Source: Savitreella phatthalungensis (taxonomy: Eukaryota). Taken from it: a stretch of DNA of 64,000 nt. Position 1 is the stretch's first letter. Each line of letters starts with the position of its first letter. The notes beneath the pieces are model-generated. The model searched no databases and was not told the DNA's origin. It worked only from the letters and a program-made list of their open reading frames with translations. The position numbers were made by a program, and so were the translations under genes. The stretch lies in assembly GCA_051599415.1 (NCBI GenBank), contig AP039695.1, forward strand, positions 124,001 to 188,000. Direction: 5' to 3'. Shown piece after piece: positions 9,494 through 56,681 of the stretch.

Positions 9494-9685
9494 ACCTGAG
9501 CAGCTGCCAGACAGAAAGACATCCAGCTCAGCATGATGAGAGGAGATCCACGAAGACATGTGATAGAGCAGAGTGTGATTTAGTGATGATTGATATTGCT
9601 CCACAGATAAATTAGATTTCCATATCAACTTTAATTGAATGTGGAGTAAATTGAAAATCAAATTCAACCCGCCTAGCCTAAGCAT

Positions 9686-9790
9686 AAATTCAAATTCAAA
9701 TTCAAATTCAAATTCAAATTCAAATTCAAATTCAAATTCAAATTCAAATTCAAATTCAAATTCAAATTCAAATTCAAATTCAAATTCAAA
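9686..9790. repeat. Perfect (AAATTC)17 microsatellite
   Basis: 17 perfect copies at 9686-9787 plus a partial unit. Confidence 0.97.
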
Positions 9791-15019: not shown

Positions 15020-15178
15020 CTGACTCAGGTCGTCTCATGCATCGCATCCTTATACGTCTAATGAATAATCTCTATCCCCCTCAAAAGCCAAGTTTAAAAA
15101 AGAAGAGAAGTTTGATTATAAGCTATGTCGTGATTCGTATCGGGGTAATGCTAAATGCTATGTAGTTGTTGCGTGATA

Positions 15179-16245
15179 GTCGTTCGTGAGGTTTGGGTCG
15201 AAGAGGAAGAGAGTGATTTTGAAGAGATCAAGGAAAGAGAGAGAGAGAGAGAGAGATCGGATTCGGTTTCTTTGGTAATCAACTGCACTGTCCAGGACCC
15301 ACTGGATGACAGAGCTCCTTTATCCGGTGGACGATCCCTCAAGTCACTTTAAGGATGGGGAAAGTCCAAACCGCCTAGGCGCTGTACCGAAAGGAAACCT
15401 TTCGTCACGCTCTCTCTCTCCATCCCTCGCACTCCCCGTCGCTCTTCCTGTCTTCAAAGTACCGTCCTGCTAGCTGTTAGTACTCGGAGTTCGGTTTCTT
15501 GGGTGTCGAAGCGATTGGTGGTTGCCCGTGGTCGGACCTCTATAAGAAGACACACGATGCGGTGGCTTAGAGCGATGACGATCTAGCAGGTCAGTAGGAT
15601 GGTTGGACGCGGAGTATGGAAGTCCGCCTTCGGTAGACGAGGAGGAGGACGAGCTGAAGGAGTTAGTGTGAGGGAGGATTCAAGAGCAGTAAGAAGGAAA
15701 AGGTGGCGACCGATCGACGAAGGTGGTTAGAGGCATGGGAAGAGGTTGGGAGAGGAGAGAAGAGAAAAAACCTTCGGGCATGGCAGATATCCAGGACCTC
15801 TGGACCGCCAGGACTCCTGCAGACAAACTCACCCTCAAGTCCCGACAGGTATGGGGTGGCTCGTCCGAGCAGGCGCCGATCTCCCCTGTGAATTCTCTCT
15901 TTCTCTCGCTCTCTTTCTCTCTTCTTCCGCCTCGCCAACCCATCGAAAAGCTCGCGTTCCTCTGGCCCCCTAGCGTCTCGTCTCCCCCACAGTTCACACC
16001 CCAGTCAAGCCTCCACTCTCCACCGATCAGAAGCTCATCCAGTACTCTCGCGCCACTACCAATTCCACTGATGCCAATAAACGCCTCACTTGGTGTTTGG
16101 CAGCCGTGTTTCGCGCATCGTGTGCTCTGCTAGAGGTCAGTAGGATTGATCGGGATTCCGCCAGTAGTGTCGCTGCGGTCGAAGCGTCGATGTGTTGTTG
16201 TATTTTGTTGGCACTCTTTCCCTTCCACCCTCTCTCACGAACAGA
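15179..16245 (-). other. Highly structured RNA domain 3' of the orphan ORF (putative 3' UTR or embedded ncRNA)
   Basis: Nested inverted repeats: 15182-15190/16234-16242, 15205-15215/16212-16221, 15218-15225/15451-15458, 15466-15473/15583-15590 and ~15592-15620/~16038-16070. Contains two homologous internal modules. Confidence 0.6.
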
Positions 16246-16256
16246 CAGGAGGCCAA

Positions 16257-17573
16257 TTAGGCCTTGTGGACGATCTGGTTCTCTGCAGAGGCAGATCCCC
16301 AGTCGAAGACGACGTCGGTCATCTTGCCATTGAACGAGTCGTAAGAGAAGACCTGGTACTTGGGCTTAGGCTGTCCGCCGAGGGTGAGGAGGTTGGTGCG
16401 TGCAGCTGCGTCGATCATGTCTGTGCGACGGCCCTTGTTGCGGATGAAGTCCGAGATCGGGCGGCGGCTGTTGCGAGAGGGCGTGCAGCAGTAGCCGAAA
16501 AGGGGCTCACGGAACTCGTTGTCCTCGTCGTCAGCGTCAACGAAGGAGTCGCTGCCAGCCTCGCGAAGGTGCAGACGGAGCTTGGCGATCTCAGAGCCAG
16601 CGGCGGCCTTGTGCTGGAGACGCTGAAGGGCAAGGTCACGGTTCAGAGGACCGTTAGCGGCAGTGTAGAGCTCGAACTGCTCATCGTTGGCGTAGACAAT
16701 GGGGTCGATGACCTCCTGAGTCGCCTCGTCAGCGACCTCAGGGATATCGCCGTAGACAGATGCATCGTCGTCGACAATCTCCTCCTCTTGTGCCTCCTCA
16801 GCGATAGAGAGGACAGACAGGGACTGCTCGAGCAGCTTCGAGTTGAGCTCTGCGGCAAAGGAGGTCTCTGCCTTCAGAGACTCTTCGTCCTGCTCCTGAA
16901 GAGGCTCCTCGATAGGTGTGGTGGCGGCAGTCTCGAAGAGAGGCGAAGGCTGACCGGCAGTGGTAGGCGAAGCAGTACCGACATTGTCAGTACCGAGCTC
17001 GACCTCGAGGTCGTCGAGGATGTTGGAGCGCGATGCACCCCACTCGGACTCTTCGCGTAGTGAGAAGAGCGAACCGTTGTAGGCAACGGTGAGCTCGGAA
17101 AGGGGAAGGACGTCGGCGACGCGGATCCTCTTGACAGGCGAGGCAATGGTGTTGTTGAAGGCAGAGGTGTTGAAGAAAGAGCTCGCAGCGGTGACGTTGG
17201 CCTCCTCTTCAACCGGAGTCTGCTCGGAGTTGCAGAGCTGGACGTTCTTGAGTCCTGCGTAGTGCTCCGGAGCGCCCAGAGACTTTGCGGTTCCGGGAAT
17301 CATGTACATGTTGCGGGCCTTGAGATCCTTGTGGAGCTTCTTGTCAGCCTTCTTTAGGGCCTTTGCCTCCTTCTTGGCCTTCTTCTCAGCGCAGGTGGCA
17401 AAGCGAATGGCTCCGCAGGAGGCGTTGGAGATGGTCTGCTTAACCTCAGCGACAGCAAACTCACGAGCAAGCTCGCGCTCCCAGCTGCGCTTGCTGAAGA
17501 GAGAGAAGGGCTTGGGGGCCGGGGCCGAGGCCGAGGCAGAGAAAGTGGTGGTGTTCTTGTTGAAGAAAGACAT
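16257..17573 (-). CDS. Orphan protein, 438 aa (Lys-rich N-terminal helix, acidic centre, basic C-terminus)
   Basis: Long ORF with strong codon bias (AAG/GAG/AAC/TTC/GCC) and an A/C-rich leader ending ...cttacaaccATG. No family recognised. Confidence 0.75.
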   Translation of the reverse strand: MSFFNKNTTTFSASASAPAPKPFSLFSKRSWERELAREFAVAEVKQTISNASCGAIRFATCAEKKAKKEAKALKKADKKLHKDLKARNMYMIPGTAKSLGAPEHYAGLKNVQLCNSEQTPVEEEANVTAASSFFNTSAFNNTIASPVKRIRVADVLPLSELTVAYNGSLFSLREESEWGASRSNILDDLEVELGTDNVGTASPTTAGQPSPLFETAATTPIEEPLQEQDEESLKAETSFAAELNSKLLEQSLSVLSIAEEAQEEEIVDDDASVYGDIPEVADEATQEVIDPIVYANDEQFELYTAANGPLNRDLALQRLQHKAAAGSEIAKLRLHLREAGSDSFVDADDEDNEFREPLFGYCCTPSRNSRRPISDFIRNKGRRTDMIDAAARTNLLTLGGQPKPKYQVFSYDSFNGKMTDVVFDWGSASAENQIVHKA

Positions 17574-17654
17574 GGTTGTAAGAGTAGTTGAAGAGACTTA
17601 AAAAGTGTTGTAAAAGAGCTGAAGCTAGACGAGACTGCTTGAGTGTGTACTTGC

Positions 17655-18996
17655 CTGTTGGGATGTTAGTTGCCTGACTCGAAAGGGAAACAACACCCGT
17701 CCGCATCGCAATGGCCTCGCCGACGACGCTAGGGCCCTCGTCCTCGCTCATGACAGGAGCAGCATACGCTACTCCCGCCAGAGCGAGGACGGAGGACCAC
17801 CAGCATCGAGGGCTTGACTCGGTCAACGAGCTCATCCCCCTGATCTCTGCCACAAGGACAGAGGGGAGGACAAGCTCGCGGCCTTGACGGACGACGCCTG
17901 CGCGCGCCTCCACAAGGGTCAGAGGGAGCAGAGAAAGCGAAGAATTCGAGCATTTGCTCTATTCCCCGACATTTCCACTCCCTCCTCGTCTTGAGGAGGG
18001 TTGCTCAGACGCCGCCGGCAAGGCCAAGTCGAGCTCGAAATTTTGGCATGCCCTGCCGTCGCCGAGGCTCACGCTACGTCTCTCCCCCACGAATGTGGGA
18101 AAGAGATCGCAGCGCTCGCCTCGGCAACGTCAGGCACTGCCGTGCGGATTGTCTCGGGTCCGACCTTTACCATAGACAGACGTGCATGAAGGGTTTTTCA
18201 CCGAGGGGCAAGTCTCGGCCCGAGTACGAGGGAGGAAAAATGACCACGTCTGGGACGCCCGTTAAGGACAGTATCCCAGACAACTAGTTACTCTCTCCGT
18301 TGAAGGAGAGAGTCTAGGGATCATAGTTCCTTTCGACTCGGGGCTCTGACGAGCCCCTCGAAACCCTCAGCACGCCCGTCAGGCAAAGGTCGGTCGAGAC
18401 CCGCACGGCAACTCGAAGCGCGACGACGCAAGAAGAGACGGTTGGGGCGAATCCGCGGGCAGACCACGACTCGTCCCATCGACCTTCCCCTATGAAGGGA
18501 GAAGGGACGGAACGAACGCGGTCTGCCCTCCCACCTGACTACCCGACCCTCGTGAAGAAGGTAGGTAATCAGACGGTGTGGACTCCCCTCCCGCTGCAGG
18601 TCCGTCCCTTCAGGACTCCAGTCGCCCTCCTACCCGAGTACCTGACCACGTCGCCCTCATACAGAGAGGCAGACGTGAGATAGGCAACTTCTCGGGTCGA
18701 AAGAGACGAACAGGAGTCGCGTGAAGGGGAGAGGACCCACATTGGGAGGGACCGACTCATGCGTCGCCGGCAACGAGGCCGACGAGCCCGACTCGACCGA
18801 TCTCGCACGACGACAACTGGTACCACAAACACCCCTTTACACATTTGACGGCTAGGACTCTCGTTATGAGAATGCCCTAGACAACCAAGAGACAATCCGT
18901 TGAGGAAAGCTCTGGCGTCAAGTGTGTAGAGTGTTTGAGGACCAGCGCCGTCGGCGAGGCCGACGAGCGGTGAGTGTTGTCGAGAGGGATCCTTAC
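17655..18996 (-). other. Putative 1342-nt highly structured 5'-UTR spliceosomal intron (or structured leader)
   Basis: Minus strand: GTAAGG at 18996, ACTAAC branch at 17670-17665, CAG ending 17655. A long-range stem 17713-17730/18944-18961 plus 17690-17696/18974-18980 joins the ends, and the interior is filled with hairpins. Confidence 0.55.
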
Positions 18997-19031
18997 AAAG
19001 AAGGTGAGGATCGAGTATGGGCTGAAGGTTG

Positions 19032-20031
19032 CTTATATCCTTTCGTCGGCCAGGTCGAGAACTCGATTGACCTAGCCGATAATTCCATTGACCTAGCCGA
19101 CAATGTCATTGCCTTCGGCTATGTGTGATGGTGGTGATTTGCAGAAAAGACGTTGTCTTTTTGCAATTCCGTGTGTCCTAAAGCGTGCTGTCGGCCTGTG
19201 ACTGGACGATGTGAAGTGCACGACGAGCCGATGTGCAAAAGTACACCATAAGTAAGAGGTGTACAATTCCACCAAATCCTTCATACATGATCGATATCAT
19301 CATGTAGCTAGAGTCATCCTGAGTCGTATGCGACTACTCTCGCGGTCATCAGCCTCTTGTACGCCGAGCTATAGCGGGTGAAGTGGAATGGAGGTGTCGT
19401 GTGGACATGTTTTCGTGACGTTACATGAAGATGTTGAGCAAATGATCAATGTGATCTGAGCTCAATTGAGTATGAATTGAGTCTGATTCAGGTGTGATAT
19501 TGTGATTTTGTATCAATTCACCCCCAAATAGTTTGATTCACTTTTAGCGATGCACGTGAATATATGCAATTGATCAATTGACCGTTGACCAATCAATGGA
19601 TGTACCATTGGCGTGGCTGGTCATTGAGACTTTCTCAAATCTCTGCAAAGCGCTGATCCTTCTGACGCAATGGCAACCGTTGACGGTACACGGCAACCGT
19701 CAAAGTTTATCGTAGATTATCCATTGTATTCCTTCGGCTGAGTCGTTACCATCAGCAACGGGTAGCCGAGTGATTGTCAACAGTCTCAAGAGGCGTCTCG
19801 GCTAGCATCCCATACCCGTATAGCCTTCATATTGACCGATGTGCTCGGCGATATTAGTATGAAATTGATCGTCAGACCGAGCTTGACCACCGTAGCGAGT
19901 ATGACTGTCTCTCGCCCACTGAGCGTATGGCTGGACCGTTTGGGAAGCTAGCCGAAGGCGTCTGGTCGCGAAGCTTGTGATCGCGTGAAAGGCCGGAGAA
20001 TTTCAATTAAGCTCGGCTGAAAGCTCGGCTA
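19032..20031 (-). promoter_or_regulatory. Putative promoter: TATA-like ATATAAG plus cluster of TAGCCGA motifs
   Basis: cttatat at 19032-19038. TAGCCGA/TCGGCTA at 19073, 19094, 19115, 19763, 19798, 19949 and 20025. ATTGACCTAGCCGA direct repeat at 19066 and 19087. Confidence 0.55.
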
Positions 20032-21240: not shown

Positions 21241-22800
21241 TCATAGAGATTGCTGCTCAAAGGCGATGTTGTCGATAATGAATTGGGAGTTGCCATTAGC
21301 TCCATTCTTGCAGCCGTAGGCGAACTTTAGCATTCCTGAGACGGTAGGAGAAGGGGGCACAAAAAGCTTGCCACTGTAATTCCAGTCGAAGGTGGTGCTC
21401 AGATCTGTCTGCTTGAAGCGCCTCGAAAAGATTTGGTTGTCTGCCCATGTGACGTTCAGGTCGCAATACTGGTACGACACAAGGTACTTGAGTGCGTAGT
21501 AGAAACTGCAAGTAAATCCAGCTGCGAGGGTCGGGTCATAGATATCCTGCTGGACATAGGCCACACGATTACCGAGATTAGAGGTAAACTGCATCAATAC
21601 GTACCTCGAGCCATCTTCCGCGACACTTGCGTCGATCGGAGCCACCACAAAGGGGACGCCAGCAGAAGACCACTCGACCGGGAAAGTATTGACGCCTTCT
21701 TCGAACGAAGGGTTACGCAAGGGCTTCACTGTCCTAGGGACCGCCGTTGCCACAACCTGAACAACTGAAGTTGCAGTCGACACAAGGGTTGTCGTGGTCG
21801 TTGATGTCCCAAATGTGGTGAGCTCGGCGGTGGATGTGGTAGCCGAGGAGACAGTCAAGGTCGTAAGAAGCGTGATCGTGGTAGTTCGAGTTGTCGTCAC
21901 GGTGGAAGTGCTCGTGTCCGTCCGGGCGAAAGTTGACAGGGCGATCGATGGAATGACAATGGTGACTGTCGGACGCGCGAGTGTTGTTGTCGTGGTTGTT
22001 GTCGATGTGAGCGTGTAGCAGCCGGTCGGTGCAACGACAGGCAAGGAGGATGCAGGAGAGCTCGGAGGAGCCAGCCGTTTGACGAGAGGAGTCGCCGCCG
22101 TCGAAGTTATCGTCGTTGTCGAAAGCGCGATCTGCGTTGAGAGAGCAGTGACCGTTGAGACGACAGTCCTTGTGACAACTCGTATGACGACGAAATTAGC
22201 GATTCTTGAAGCGATCACCGTGTTGTACGCTGTAGACTCCGAGACAGCCTGGGAGGTTGCCACAGAGATCGTCGTCGCAGTCGAAGTGGGGAGACTCGAG
22301 GAAACGGAAGTGGTGAAGACCGTGGACGCGGTCGGCGTGACTGTGACCGTGCTGGTCGTTGTTGTTCTCACTGGTTCGAACGTTGTGAGACGTACTGTCG
22401 GCGTTGTTGTGACCGTGGCGGCTGCGGCCAAACAGCTACAGGCGCGAGAGAGAGCGCTTGTGCCAAGTGCTGTCATGTACTTCGGACACAGCGGACCTGC
22501 TGAGCGAGCAGCCCTGTTCTCGAGCTCGCGTTTGCTCAAGGTGGCAGATGCGGCGGGCAGCGTTGCGAAACATCGACCGCGTACAGTCGACGTGACAGCC
22601 GCTGCAGTGATAGTCTTCTGTGAGGCGGAAATGAACGCGCTGCAGAAGGCTGAAGCGGTGGAGGGCTCGGTGGACGGTTGAAGGGCAACGATACTCTGCA
22701 CAAGATCGCATCGTGAGCTTGCAACGGCTGCAGACATACTGCCAGCCGTGTCGAGGGTCGCCACGGCCGCGACGCAGGCCAACACACCGAGCAGGAACAT
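21241..22800 (-). CDS. Secreted Ser/Thr-rich protein with C-terminal CBM/galactose-binding-like domain (copy 1)
   Basis: ATG at 22800 gives signal peptide MFLLGVLACVAAVA. Cys motifs AFCSAF and RACSCL, KR (Kex2-like) sites, a Thr-rich stalk, and LRNPSFE opening a beta-rich domain. Confidence 0.8.
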   Translation of the reverse strand: MFLLGVLACVAAVATLDTAGSMSAAVASSRCDLVQSIVALQPSTEPSTASAFCSAFISASQKTITAAAVTSTVRGRCFATLPAASATLSKRELENRAARSAGPLCPKYMTALGTSALSRACSCLAAAATVTTTPTVRLTTFEPVRTTTTSTVTVTPTASTVFTTSVSSSLPTSTATTISVATSQAVSESTAYNTVIASRIANFVVIRVVTRTVVSTVTALSTQIALSTTTITSTAATPLVKRLAPPSSPASSLPVVAPTGCYTLTSTTTTTTTLARPTVTIVIPSIALSTFARTDTSTSTVTTTRTTTITLLTTLTVSSATTSTAELTTFGTSTTTTTLVSTATSVVQVVATAVPRTVKPLRNPSFEEGVNTFPVEWSSAGVPFVVAPIDASVAEDGSRYVLMQFTSNLGNRVAYVQQDIYDPTLAAGFTCSFYYALKYLVSYQYCDLNVTWADNQIFSRRFKQTDLSTTFDWNYSGKLFVPPSPTVSGMLKFAYGCKNGANGNSQFIIDNIAFEQQSL

Positions 22801-28748: not shown

Positions 28749-30678
28749 ATATAAAGTCGAAACACGTAAAATTGATCACCTTTAACTTCGCGCAGAAAAT
28801 AAAGACGCGTCGAACACGTCACCACCTGCCTTCAGAGCAGCCTACTGCCTCCTACAGCGCCTATGGACGCATTATATCGCGAGGCATGCCTCCAGGCAGC
28901 CTTGAACCACTACGCTGCTCGAAGAGACGGCCAGAAACCGTCAATTCGTGATGCTGCAGCAGAGTATAGCGTTTCACCCAGCACTTTGAGGCATCGGCTA
29001 CTGAACGGCAATAGGACTGCCTCAGAGGCTGCCAGAGAGCGCCAAAAGCTGACAGAATCACAGGAGAAGGCTCTGGTAGACATGCTGCACAGAAGGTCTG
29101 CAGTAGGCTATCCTATGACTCCTGGGGAGGTCACTAGCCTAGCAGACAAATTTTTCGAAGCTCGCGGCAGCACAGTGCACCTCGGAATGCGCTGGTTTCC
29201 TTCCTTCAAATTACGCCATCCTGACATCCACACAGTGCGCAGCAATTGCATCGACCACAGCCGCATGTACGCGGTGGATTCAGCCACTGTGGAAGCCTAT
29301 TTCAAGATCCTAGGCACCTATCTTCGAGAGGAAGCAATCCTGCCTGAGGATGTGTGGAATGCTGACAAATCTGGCCTCATGATGGGCCGTTCCCAGTCCT
29401 CCCAGGTGGTGGTCCCACTGCTGCAGAAGGGTAAGAAGCGCGCTGTGGCAGCAGACAATGGAGATCGCGAAACAGTCAGCTGTATGGCCTGTGTTTCTGC
29501 TGCAGGTGCCCATTTACAACCAGTTCTGGTGTTCAGGCGCACTCAGGCGAAGAGGGAGGCCTGTGGAAAGGCTGTGGAGGCTGGGCTGGCGCCTCCTGAC
29601 AAGGCAAAGTACCTAGGCACGCCTGGAAACGCTGTACGCGTGTTTCACTCGAAAAACGGCTTCCTCACGTCCCAGTTAATCGTCCAGTGGCTACAGGAGG
29701 TCTTCCTGCCTGCCACAGCACGAGATCCACCGAGGACGCGCGTCCTAGTGATCAATGGCGCCTGCGCTCACGCCACGCACGAGGTCATGTATGAATGCGC
29801 GAAAAATGGCGTCAAACTGGTTTATCTGCCTGCCCACAGCTCCCACCTCACACAGCCGCTCGACCTAGCCGTATTCTCGCCTTTGAAGAACTACTATGGG
29901 CAGGCAGTGAAGGTACTCAGCCGCAGGCTAGCTGGCAGACCCTGGGGGCGCAAAGAATTCATCTCGATCTTTCTCGGCGCCTGGCAGAAGGCGCTGAACC
30001 GCCAGAACATCACCTCAGGCTTCAGGCAAGGCGGTATCTGGCCCTATGACCCACAGGCGGTGCGCCGAAGCGTGCTCTCTTACAACAATTCAGTCGAATC
30101 TGCCTCGGAAGCTGCGAAAAGGCCAGAAAGGCCTGCCTTGGCCACCCTGACCACCAATGCAGCCAATACACTGCCTAAAACAGTCAAAGCGACACGCGCG
30201 ACACTGCAGGCAGCTGGAAAAGAGAGATACGAGGTGCTAGAGCTAGCACTTGCAGAGAATGCGCAAAAAGATCGCCTCATCGAGGAACTGAGAACTGCTG
30301 CAGAGCAGCACCAGTTCATGATCGCCGATAGGGACGAGACTATAGCAGCCCTGCAGGCCAAGGCCTCGCGTCCTAGGGCAGCCTTCAAGGCACAGCAGCT
30401 GGCTAGAGGAGTGGACTGGCTAAAAGGCTTACTCGGCGAAGACTACACAGATATGAGGTGGCACTGGATCGCAGCGAAGGCGAGGGCTGCTAAAATCGAG
30501 CCTAGAGCATGGATAGAGGCACAGGACCAGGCTACCTTACTTTCAGAGCTAGCGCTGGTGATTCCATCGAATAGCGAGCAATCTACGGAGAAGGTGCCTT
30601 CGAAGAGGCGACAAAAAAAACGTGTGTGAAATTGATTAATCTTAAAGGTGATCAATTCTAGGTGTAGCGACTTTATAT
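28749..30678 (+). mobile_element. pogo/Fot1-like (Tc1-mariner superfamily) DNA transposon with ~37-bp TIRs
   Basis: Left ATATAAAGTCGAAACACGTAAAATTGATCACCTTTAA (28749-28785) versus reverse complement of right 30642-30678 ATATAAAGTCGCTACACCTAGAATTGATCACCTTTAA (4 mismatches). Ends lie in TA dinucleotides and enclose a transposase ORF. Confidence 0.92.
28863..30629 (+). CDS. pogo/Fot1-type transposase (HTH_psq + CENP-B/Tc5 HTH + DDE_1), catalytic motif altered
   Basis: SIRDAAAEYSVSPSTLRHRL, QKLTESQEKALV, LGMRWFPSFKLRHP, VWNADKSG, VLVINGACAH and LPAHSSHLTQPLDLAVFSPLK. Confidence 0.9.
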   Translation: MDALYREACLQAALNHYAARRDGQKPSIRDAAAEYSVSPSTLRHRLLNGNRTASEAARERQKLTESQEKALVDMLHRRSAVGYPMTPGEVTSLADKFFEARGSTVHLGMRWFPSFKLRHPDIHTVRSNCIDHSRMYAVDSATVEAYFKILGTYLREEAILPEDVWNADKSGLMMGRSQSSQVVVPLLQKGKKRAVAADNGDRETVSCMACVSAAGAHLQPVLVFRRTQAKREACGKAVEAGLAPPDKAKYLGTPGNAVRVFHSKNGFLTSQLIVQWLQEVFLPATARDPPRTRVLVINGACAHATHEVMYECAKNGVKLVYLPAHSSHLTQPLDLAVFSPLKNYYGQAVKVLSRRLAGRPWGRKEFISIFLGAWQKALNRQNITSGFRQGGIWPYDPQAVRRSVLSYNNSVESASEAAKRPERPALATLTTNAANTLPKTVKATRATLQAAGKERYEVLELALAENAQKDRLIEELRTAAEQHQFMIADRDETIAALQAKASRPRAAFKAQQLARGVDWLKGLLGEDYTDMRWHWIAAKARAAKIEPRAWIEAQDQATLLSELALVIPSNSEQSTEKVPSKRRQKKRV

Positions 30679-55189: not shown

Positions 55190-56335
55190 CTATGTGGAAA
55201 AGGGTGGATGTCGTTGTGAGGAGTTGGGATCGCCTGAGTGTGAAGGTGTAGCGAGTGGTGGATCCTCCTCCTCGACCACCACCACCTCTTCCACTTCTTC
55301 GTCCTCAGACGATATTTCAGGACCGACCAACCCAATATACCGTCGCAGCCAGGCCATCTTGGGACCGCTCCTTGCACGGGACGACACCTTGAAGCCGTAG
55401 ATCCTCGGGAGGTATGGTTCTGGGATTGCTGGCGGGGTTGGAGCTGTGAGGGTGGGTGGTTCTAGGGTTGGTGGTTGGGTGCGTGGTTGGAGTGCGGGCA
55501 GACGGTTGAGGAGGTCTGGGAAGGTGAGGAAGAAGAGGTGTGGGAAGGTTGTGCCGAAGAAAGCGCCGTCGATGTTGTGGAATCTCGAGTTTGGCGGGAC
55601 GTAGACGTCCAGGCAGTTCGGGCAGTACAGCTTCACGCTCTCCTGAGAAGGAATGTCGCTCAACCCGACCGGCACCACACCAGTCCGCTCACAGAACGCC
55701 CGTGGGCAAGTCCCAAAATGCCCACCTTCGTACTTCTCAGCCATCGACGCAAGTCCAGCACGCGACACGATATACCGGCTGTGGATCAACCCGTACAGCA
55801 GCTCGGCAGACGCCTCGATCGCCGATTGGTCTGCTGCAGATCGACCTCCTCCACCACGACCGCCGCCGGCGTGACCGTTTGCATGACCCTTGCCGTCCAG
55901 GTCGGAGTCCTCTTCGTCGTCCTCGTCCGGCTCTAGGTCGAGGATGAGCTCGAACGCTTCTCTGTAGTTGGCGACGGCTGTGTGGAGACCTGTCATGTTG
56001 AAGTCGTCCTCGATGAATTCCTCGGGCACCTCGCAGAAGTACTCGTGACCGAGGTGCGTACACCACCACGTGATCCAGCTCAAGCTCTCAGACGTCGACG
56101 ACATCAAACCCTCACTCCCAAGCAAATCCTCCTCGTCCTCATCCTCCTCCGACGCGTCCTCGGAATCATCGCTTCGCCATGACCCAACCAACAGGTCCTG
56201 CCCGTCCAGACGAGGCTCCTCTATCGATAGTACTTGCGTCTGTGATCGTGATTGCTGCTGCTGCTGCTGGTGGCGCAGACGTTGTCGATCGAGAAGATCG
56301 TCTTGGTCATTAGACATGAGCCCTGAATTGCTCAT
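55190..56335 (-). CDS. ckb1: Casein kinase II regulatory beta subunit
   Basis: SWITWWC..GHEYFCEVPEEFIEDDFNMTGL, LYGLIHSRYI, FGTCPR, VKLYCPNCLDVY, IDGAFFGTTFPHLF and PRIYGFKV. Confidence 0.95.
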   Translation of the reverse strand: MSNSGLMSNDQDDLLDRQRLRHQQQQQQSRSQTQVLSIEEPRLDGQDLLVGSWRSDDSEDASEEDEDEEDLLGSEGLMSSTSESLSWITWWCTHLGHEYFCEVPEEFIEDDFNMTGLHTAVANYREAFELILDLEPDEDDEEDSDLDGKGHANGHAGGGRGGGGRSAADQSAIEASAELLYGLIHSRYIVSRAGLASMAEKYEGGHFGTCPRAFCERTGVVPVGLSDIPSQESVKLYCPNCLDVYVPPNSRFHNIDGAFFGTTFPHLFFLTFPDLLNRLPALQPRTQPPTLEPPTLTAPTPPAIPEPYLPRIYGFKVSSRARSGPKMAWLRRYIGLVGPEISSEDEEVEEVVVVEEEDPPLATPSHSGDPNSSQRHPPFST

Positions 56336-56479: not shown

Positions 56480-56681
56480 CTGGAAACACCCCTGTTAGTA
56501 GGGCAATTGGGAAATTTGCGATCGTGACAGGGCAGCGCGGCTGAGCTGTTGACCGACTCGGAATAGATTGCTGGTACTCAAGAAGGTACCCCGTCCGTAA
56601 TACTGTTGTACAGAACCTTCTCTCTACTTGCTAGAGAGCTATTGTAGAGCCTGTCCAGTTGACCCCTTATCTTGCACTTAC
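56480..56681 (-). other. Putative 202-nt 5'-UTR intron of ckb1
   Basis: Minus strand: GTAAGT at 56681, TACTAAC at 56500-56494, TTTCCAG ending 56480. Internal stem 56526-56531/56650-56655. Confidence 0.6.

Follow-up and report, generated by a model that had tools for sequence, protein, structure and literature searches.

A 1.3-kb self-folding block 5' of a small Taphrinales gene: a candidate structured intron of foldback-insertion origin

Introduction

In Saccharomyces cerevisiae, zipper-stem introns such as those of RPS17B and RPL7B contain an internal stem that shortens the path from the donor to the branch site, and the criteria given in the available portion of that work are a stem at least 10 nt from the donor and 20 nt or more from the branch site, with a total linker of 42 to 85 nt (PMC12350175). 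Here we analyze a 1,291-nt self-folding block (the 5' block) that lies upstream of a minus-strand open reading frame (ORF) of 438 amino acids in Savitreella phatthalungensis contig AP039695.1. The window is the whole stretch that was analyzed, 64,000 nt (64 kb; contig positions 124,001 to 188,000), and all positions below are counted from its first letter. The block resembles the S. cerevisiae introns in that its closing stem would shorten the path between a donor-like and a branch-site-like sequence. It is unlike them in that the domain that its stem closes is multi-branched, 1,291 nt long and 80% paired, that splicing is predicted, that the linker of ~37 to 39 nt is shorter than the modeled 42 nt, and that the host is a distant Taphrinomycotina yeast.

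Two groups of fungal introns are also similar to the block. The symmetrical stwintrons and sister introns of Hypoxylaceae (PMC8469720) and fungal introner-like elements (PMC3609843) have terminal inverted repeats or a stable predicted structure and, according to the accessible parts of these two papers, could form double-stranded intron RNA. The Hypoxylaceae introns are short and multicopy, integrate seamlessly and bring their own splice signals, and no flanking duplications are reported in the available text (PMC8469720). Unlike both groups, the block is 1.3 kb in size, is single copy in the window, is flanked by a 10-nt direct repeat, and has its splice-type signals outside that repeat.

Foldback transposons and miniature inverted-repeat transposable elements (MITEs) are comparable at the DNA level, since the block has blunt terminal inverted repeats and a 9- to 10-nt direct repeat, is non-coding, and folds back over its entire length. 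Target duplications of 8 to 10 bp are made by Mutator-like and hAT-like elements. Unlike foldback elements and MITEs, the block contains nested local hairpins, has a strong bias toward G.U pairs in the sense strand, and has arms that are nearly invisible to a DNA search, and neither a further copy nor a matching transposase was found in the 64-kb window.

Long hairpins are also formed by transcripts of the Drosophila hpRNA loci. At fungal hairpin small-RNA loci, to judge from the part of the source at hand, the transcript folds into a long hairpin in which G.U pairs spare the DNA a perfect palindrome (PMC9757828), and the block is similar in this respect. Its uninterrupted duplexes, in contrast, are at most 15 bp, and it has no target in the window.

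The telomerase RNA of Ustilago maydis is processed from an mRNA, and the block would likewise be a large non-coding RNA domain within one transcription unit with an ORF. Unlike the U. maydis RNA, it lies 5' of the ORF. Telomerase RNA was rejected as an identity for the block, which has no CCCTAACCC-like site (at most one mismatch) and no template-like permutation of any of six common telomere repeats. To our knowledge, 80% pairing and a folding z score of -28 are also unlike known telomerase RNAs.

Most likely the block combines, in a new variant form, two kinds of element that are already known, a zipper-type structured intron and a foldback insertion. Specifically, the explanation that we favor, to which we assign a probability of only roughly 40%, is that a foldback-type insertion into a 41-nt intron made a 1,342-nt intron in the 5' untranslated region (5'-UTR) of the 438-amino-acid gene, with the closing helix of the block as a zipper stem. 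In a keyword search, which cannot exclude an earlier description, no kilobase-sized intron with nearly complete pairing turned up for a Taphrinomycotina yeast.

Results

Fold strength and architecture of the 5' block

Folding was scored on both strands of the whole 64 kb in 150-nt windows at 100-nt steps, with 15 dinucleotide shuffles for each of the 639 windows. The mean z score over all of these is -0.2. The 12 sliding windows of positions 17690 to 18990 have a mean z of -3.4 on the plus strand and -4.35 on the minus strand, with single windows down to -10.75, and 9 of the 12 have a minus-strand z below -2, versus 9% of all 639. Folded as a whole, the minus strand of this domain reaches -813.5 kcal/mol with 520 pairs (80% paired, 58 G.U), and the plus strand reaches -676.8 kcal/mol with 16 G.U pairs. 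Against dinucleotide shuffles of the 1,301 nt, the minus strand has a z of -28.1, with a mean of -538.6 over 44 shuffles, and the plus strand has a z of -22.1, with a mean of -495.1 over 35 shuffles. As background, 23 intergenic tiles of 620 nt gave z values from +3.5 to -3.2, except for one microsatellite tile at -5.8. Based on these values, we conclude that the fold of the 5' block is far beyond chance and is unique in the window. A first-pass annotation, made from the letters alone, had pointed to an almost continuously paired domain of ~1.3 kb here and had seen nothing comparable in the other intergenic DNA. Both observations hold up, as the block is on both strands far below its dinucleotide shuffles and is far below the other intergenic tiles.

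On the minus strand the centroid and minimum-energy structures nearly coincide, which indicates a very well-defined fold, and the energy density is -0.63 kcal/mol per nt. A closing helix of 32 bp pairs positions 18980 to 18947 with positions 17727 to 17690, and several long-range helices lie inside it. The helices are short, with 90 uninterrupted segments that have a mean length of 5.8 bp and a maximum of 15 bp. Nearly all G residues are paired (379 of 401), and the unpaired positions comprise 73 A, 56 C, 100 U and 22 G. The block contains 16 AUGs, with 15.4 expected, and is therefore not adapted to ribosome scanning. In the hairpin loops, 6 of 23 symmetric positions are self-complementary, which rules out zero-spacer DNA palindromes.

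The hairpin tips are alike in several details. Ten of the 11 are closed by a 5'-C/G-3' pair and have loops of 4 to 6 nt, in nine the arm next to the loop is pyrimidine-rich on the 5' side and purine-rich on the 3' side, and five loops end in AAC or CAC. This likeness could reflect common descent of the tips or a shared constraint. Hairpins with a common loop motif as protein-binding sites were ruled out, since the loops differ.

Strand bias of the fold

To compare the strands, the block was also folded in a strand-neutral way, with G.U pairs forbidden (Watson-Crick pairs only) and mismatches counted in symmetric loops. This fold has 30 G.T versus 5 A.C mismatches (P = 2e-5), and because of this difference we conclude that the fold is preserved in the ORF-sense RNA. 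The C.A mismatches that had been picked out on the plus strand at first reading, and the view that folding favors the ORF-sense RNA, are thus borne out by the count. The other mismatches in the block are 13 U.U and 8 G.A, which RNA tolerates, versus 6 A.C, 4 C.U, 3 C.C and 1 A.A, which are disruptive. At the U of the G.U pairs in the block there is no bias in CpA/CpG-type dinucleotide context of the kind left by repeat-induced point mutation (RIP), and RIP-type mutation was therefore rejected as the source of the G.U bias. Such a strand-specific wobble pattern allows selection on RNA folding to be recognized in one sequence, with no need for homologs.

Marks of a probable insertion

The terminal inverted repeats of the block are 32 bp long and blunt, and they reach both ends of the element. 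They are bordered by a direct repeat that resembles a target-site duplication (Table 1). A flanking repeat of 8 of 9 or better within ±2 nt occurs at 241 of 62,669 positions, which is an empirical P value of 0.0038. When 62 stems were tested, a flanking repeat was present at the outermost stem alone, while two internal matches turned out to lie within helices. It follows that the block is a single unit, and the same evidence led us to reject a nest of small transposons piled on one another. Together, the blunt inverted repeats and the direct repeat suggest a DNA insertion. Removal of the block and one copy of the repeat leaves a 41-nt GTAAGG...ACTAAC...CAG intron. The genome does contain a DNA transposon, a pogo-like element in the window, which supports the insertion reading.

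These marks are also what would be expected if the block, perhaps along with the rod-like domain 3' of the ORF, were a neutral relic of a foldback or inverted-repeat transposon that has no RNA role. In that case mutation that differs between the strands, such as deamination of the non-template strand, would account for the strand bias. We consider this unlikely, although it is one of the two strongest competitors of the spliced-intron reading. It is consistent with the blunt inverted termini and the 9/10 direct repeat, with the intact DNA transposon in the same window, and with the ratio of transition-type (58 G.U and 6 A.C) to 29 transversion-type mismatches, which at ~2.2:1 is an ordinary transition/transversion ratio. 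The excess of U.U over A.A (13 to 1) hints at a compositional drive toward U. However, a bias of 30 to 5 or 58 to 6 is very large, and the transcription-linked asymmetries known to us are much smaller. There is no RIP-type dinucleotide signature in the block, and unpaired A is not depleted there (73 A, 56 C, 100 U and 22 G), which is contrary to strong A-to-G pressure. A further copy is absent from the window, and zero-spacer DNA palindromes are excluded for the hairpins (6 of 23 symmetric loop positions); both points argue against a neutral relic.

The first-pass annotation had offered two readings, an mRNA that hosts regulatory RNA domains and an endogenized RNA replicon or satellite segment. 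The first fits the present findings. The second, in the form of an endogenized viroid-like or satellite RNA replicon or a retrozyme-like element, has some appeal, in that the size of the block, its ~80% pairing, its helices broken every ~6 bp and its branched quasi-rod shape are as in viroid-like RNAs, and in that the constraint is at the RNA level. But an Rfam search of the block gave no hammerhead, hepatitis delta virus (HDV), hairpin, twister or other ribozyme, and no Rfam family of any kind (E values up to 10, gathering score). The block has no unit-length repeat, circular permutation or poly(A) tail, and its ends are blunt inverted repeats beside a direct repeat, as in a DNA insertion. 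In addition, no relative of the ORF turned up among viral contigs, and it has a chromosomal homolog in a yeast (Savitreella). We therefore regard a replicon origin as highly improbable.

Splice-type signals around the block

Both ends of the block are close to sequences that resemble signals for transcription and splicing (Table 1). Neither these signals nor the direct repeat had been noted in the first-pass annotation. The branch A of ACTAAC is 23 nt past the closing helix and 11 nt ahead of the AG. On both strands of the window (128 kb), there are 20 occurrences of GTAAG[TG], 6 of ACTAAC and 8 of TATAAG, so that on sequence grounds the joint placement of TATAAG, GTAAGG and ACTAAC close to the block ends seems unlikely to be due to chance. 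The predicted intron, from 18996 to 17655, is 1,342 nt long and has the donor and branch-site consensus and the YAG of a U2-type GT-AG intron. There are no AUGs in the 41 nt and 81 nt that flank it. The ATG is just 116 nt from the block, with neither a TATA nor a poly(A) signal in between, and a separate gene end plus a second promoter could hardly be accommodated there. The 16 AUGs in the block and the cramped 116 nt fit its removal from the mRNA.

A canonical 5'-UTR intron is also apparent in the CK2-beta gene of the same window, at 56480 to 56681 on the minus strand. It has the form GTAAGT...TACTAAC...CAG, is ~200 nt long and is followed by the ATG at 56335. It carries one of the other five ACTAAC sites in the window, and from this intron it follows that this intron-poor yeast employs budding-yeast-like splice signals and 5'-UTR introns. 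Introns are almost absent from the genes in the window, and an attempt to derive an intron consensus from their ORF junctions gave nothing usable.

The TATAAG could instead drive an independent RNA gene, with a hairpin RNA or structured long non-coding RNA as its product (e.g., a substrate for Dicer or RNase III, or a platform for double-stranded-RNA-binding proteins), and with a start site of its own for the ORF. The TATAAG is ~50 nt ahead of the first paired base, under a 1-kb motif-rich promoter, and the sense constraint extends across all helices and not just the closing one. The near identity of centroid and minimum-energy structures and the C-G closure of 10 of 11 tips with loops of 4 to 6 nt are likewise consistent with a functional RNA, and the sole Rfam near-misses, which score far under the thresholds, are models of long-hairpin microRNA precursors. 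However, helices of at most 15 bp, with a mean of 5.8 bp over 90 segments, are a poor substrate for phased dicing, and no complementary target occurs anywhere in the window. There are no recognizable 3'-end or promoter signals in the 116 nt before the ATG, and the splice-type signals at both ends of the block would become a coincidence. On balance we doubt this explanation to about the same degree as the neutral relic.

Alternatively, the block could be retained in the mRNA as a giant leader that gates translation through helicase-dependent scanning, ribosome shunting or internal entry, with the 3' rod controlling stability or localization. The TATA box, the block, the 81-nt AUG-free stretch and the ATG are all in line, and closed, sense-favored folds are present at both ends of the ORF. 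In contrast, a fold of -813 kcal/mol along with 16 AUGs would stop scanning, and there is no short upstream ORF that ends ahead of the stem base, which the shunting of plant pararetroviruses requires. The presence of splice-type signals also speaks against such a leader. We consider it improbable, more so than an independent RNA gene.

A proposed spliceable foldback insertion

In the explanation that we favor, the block would be transcribed along with the 438-amino-acid gene from the TATAAG and the motif-rich promoter and would fold co-transcriptionally into a compact, ~80% paired, multi-branched domain. It would then be excised as the bulk of the 1,342-nt 5'-UTR intron, and its 32-bp closing helix would serve as a zipper stem and place the GTAAGG donor within ~37 to 39 nt of the ACTAAC branch site. 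Its origin would be a foldback-type mobile element that landed in a small 41-nt 5'-UTR intron. Later changes to G.U, which keep the pairing of the sense RNA, would have been tolerated, while the mirror-image A.C changes would have been purged. For the rod-like 3' domain, which is weaker, the explanation assumes a separate structure in the 3'-UTR of the same transcript. The stem offsets of 15 and 23 nt agree with two of the three zipper-stem criteria.

Several observations weigh against this explanation. The total linker of ~37 to 39 nt is below the 42-nt minimum modeled for S. cerevisiae, although it would reach that minimum if the outer G.U and A-U pairs frayed. The TATAAG is 41 nt from the GTAAGG. 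With a fission-yeast-like start spacing exon 1 would be only ~10 nt, and with a budding-yeast-like spacing the transcription start would fall inside the block and the donor would be absent from the RNA. With respect to the insertion, the significance of the direct repeat was judged post hoc and in pyrimidine-rich sequence, and blastn found no second copy of the block within the window. In a blastn comparison, the arms of the block gave a single 18-nt inverted match, so they are almost invisible at the DNA level. Bulges and asymmetric loops are common relative to substitutions, which is a poor fit to the simple decay of a perfect palindrome. A single insertion does not account for the presence of another structured domain 3' of this small gene. 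Finally, the G.U bias is spread over all helices of the block, whereas a zipper role requires the closing helix alone.

Such a bias through all helices indicates either a function of the whole fold or a mutational bias. With the former in mind, we also considered that the block is a quasi-double-stranded RNA kept for a purpose, either spliced out or driven by the TATA box, that acts in trans or in cis. It could serve as a decoy for double-stranded-RNA-binding proteins, give rise to small RNAs, or be related, as a chromosomal form, to viroid-like RNAs, and together with the rod-like 3' domain it would make the gene a cassette under RNA-structure control. The reason to keep this explanation in play is that the sense constraint on all helices exceeds that of a pure zipper role. 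We rate it as rather unlikely, a little below an independent RNA gene and above a translation-gating leader.

If the predicted intron is spliced, it would rank with the largest and most completely paired of the spliceosomal introns reported for an intron-poor yeast. It would likewise provide a natural case in which the spliceosome tolerates a kilobase-sized insert that folds itself away, and it would bear on how transposon insertions become introns. An RNA with its own role, whether excised or independent, would represent a new kind of fungal structured RNA. If the block is merely a decaying transposon, the finding is an ordinary one.

The 438-amino-acid ORF

The sole homolog found for the ORF is the hypothetical protein BFZ54538.1 of Savitreella phatthalungensis (order Taphrinales), with 35% overall identity. 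The two share an N-terminal basic motif and a C-terminal LTLGGQ.KP.YQVF.YDSF.GK.TDV.F.WG motif. We conclude that the ORF is a real gene. It had been called an orphan in the first-pass annotation, which in view of this one homolog is, strictly, not correct. No family was found for it in Pfam, a word-index search recovered only the ORF itself, and the ESM Atlas gave no usable match. Scans with the ORF alignment found no relative among metagenome sequences or viral contigs. The AlphaFold2 model has a mean predicted local distance difference test (pLDDT) score of 41 and is therefore too poor for a fold search.

Table 1. Features of the locus and its surroundings, with positions in the 64-kb window
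Feature	Positions	Strand	Remarks
Motif-rich upstream region	19073..20031		TAGCCGA/TCGGCTA, 7 copies, both orientations; CAATTGA palindromes at 19462-19581
TATAAG, TATA-box-like	19032..19037	-	41 nt upstream of donor-like GTAAGG
GTAAGG, 5' splice-site-like	18991..18996	-	Closing helix begins 15 nt downstream
Direct repeat, left copy, TCCCTCTCGA	18980..18989	-	Resembles target-site duplication; 9/10 identical to right copy
Self-folding block, 1,291 nt	17690..18980	-	Multi-branched, 11 hairpin tips, 32-bp terminal helix
Direct repeat, right copy, TCCCTTTCGA	17679..17688	-	9/10 identical to left copy
ACTAAC, branch-site-like (17670-17665), and CAG, acceptor-like (17657-17655)	17655..17670	-	Sequence reading
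AUG-free 81-nt stretch, presumed 5'-UTR exon 2	17574..17654	-	Acceptor-like CAG to start codon
ORF, 438 amino acids	16257..17573	-	Taphrinales-restricted so far; N- and C-terminal motifs conserved; rest predicted mostly disordered
3' domain, closed by terminal stem	15176..16243	-	Starts 14 nt past stop codon; 621-nt rod and ~210-nt hairpin
pogo/Fot1-like transposon ORF	28803-30629	+	608 amino acids, DDE_1 domain

The 3' domain and the upstream region

The fold of the 3' domain is long range and is missed by local scoring, in that 150-nt windows across it have a mean z of +0.45, while the whole domain (15182 to 16242) has a z of -8.6 (28 shuffles). The same whole-region folding gave a z of -1.95 for the ORF and -3.4 for the upstream kilobase. 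The rod core (15525 to 16145, 621 nt) reaches -275 kcal/mol on the minus strand, with a z of -7.2, versus a z of -2.6 on the plus strand. It consists of co-linear helices of 10 to 34 bp in which a purine-rich 5' arm pairs with a pyrimidine-rich 3' arm, and under shuffles that keep the arm-wise and block-wise composition its z ranges from -5.4 to -9.0. The second hairpin, of ~210 nt, includes pairing of a GA/CT microsatellite. The energy density of the rod is -0.44 kcal/mol per nt versus -0.63 in the 5' block, and its 9 G.T versus 2 A.C mismatches (P = 0.065) are not significant, so that a strand bias of the rod is suggestive only. A ~1.07-kb 3' domain with its own terminal stem was thus correctly recognized at first reading, but the two flanks of the ORF are not equivalent, since the fold of the rod is moderate and that of the block is extreme.

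Splice-type sequences are also unusually frequent on the minus strand of the 3' domain. Two of the six ACTAAC sites in the window (15666 and 15480) fall between 15470 and 16240, and an exact 13-nt direct repeat, ATCCTACTGACCT, occurs at 16146 to 16134 and at 15600 to 15588, each time followed by TAG. A GTGAGA lies 19 nt past the stop codon, and a GTGAGT (15832) is at the tip of the rod. These signals may represent 3'-UTR introns or a hidden spliced transcript.

The upstream region (19073 to 20031) holds 7 of the 13 TAGCCGA and 5 of the 10 CAATTGA motifs in the window, which agrees with its earlier description as motif rich, and a 21-nt tandem repeat is located at 19056 to 19111. Its folding is mild, with a z of -3.4 for the whole region and of -4.6 and -5.9 in 620-nt tiles, and this signal comes mainly from inverted copies of the motifs. 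Judging by its motif content, the region is probably a regulated promoter or an upstream activating sequence, and in the TAGCCGA/TCGGCTA cluster a single transcription factor probably has a series of binding sites. A zinc-cluster factor would presumably fit the CGG core of the motif.

Genes and other elements in the window

The window is fungal chromosomal DNA with neighboring genes for the kinetochore protein Spc7/Knl1, a histone deacetylase, a tricalbin, a Cid1-type poly(A) polymerase, kynureninase, IQGAP, CK2-beta and HMG-CoA reductase. The best named relatives of its Cys/Met-metabolism enzyme are from Taphrina deformans (51% identity) and Protomyces lactucae-debilis (50%). From these relatives and from the sole homolog of the 438-amino-acid ORF, the yeast belongs to a deep lineage of Taphrinomycotina that is poorly sampled. 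The C terminus of the tricalbin gene product matched nine metagenome loci at 26 to 42% identity, none of them from a close relative. The upstream neighbor of the locus, at 21241 to 22800 on the minus strand, encodes a Ser/Thr-rich protein of 519 amino acids that has a signal-peptide-like N terminus and no Pfam family, and which is probably a cell-wall or secreted protein.

The pogo/Fot1-like DNA transposon at 28749 to 30678 appears to be intact, and its 37-nt inverted termini are 89% complementary. They are unrelated to the termini of the folded block. Two other folding outliers in the window were set aside, one of which is weak and the other an AATTTG microsatellite. A long AATTTG microsatellite is situated at 9660 to 9780, upstream of the tricalbin gene, and it gives a spurious folding signal with a z of about -6 to -7.

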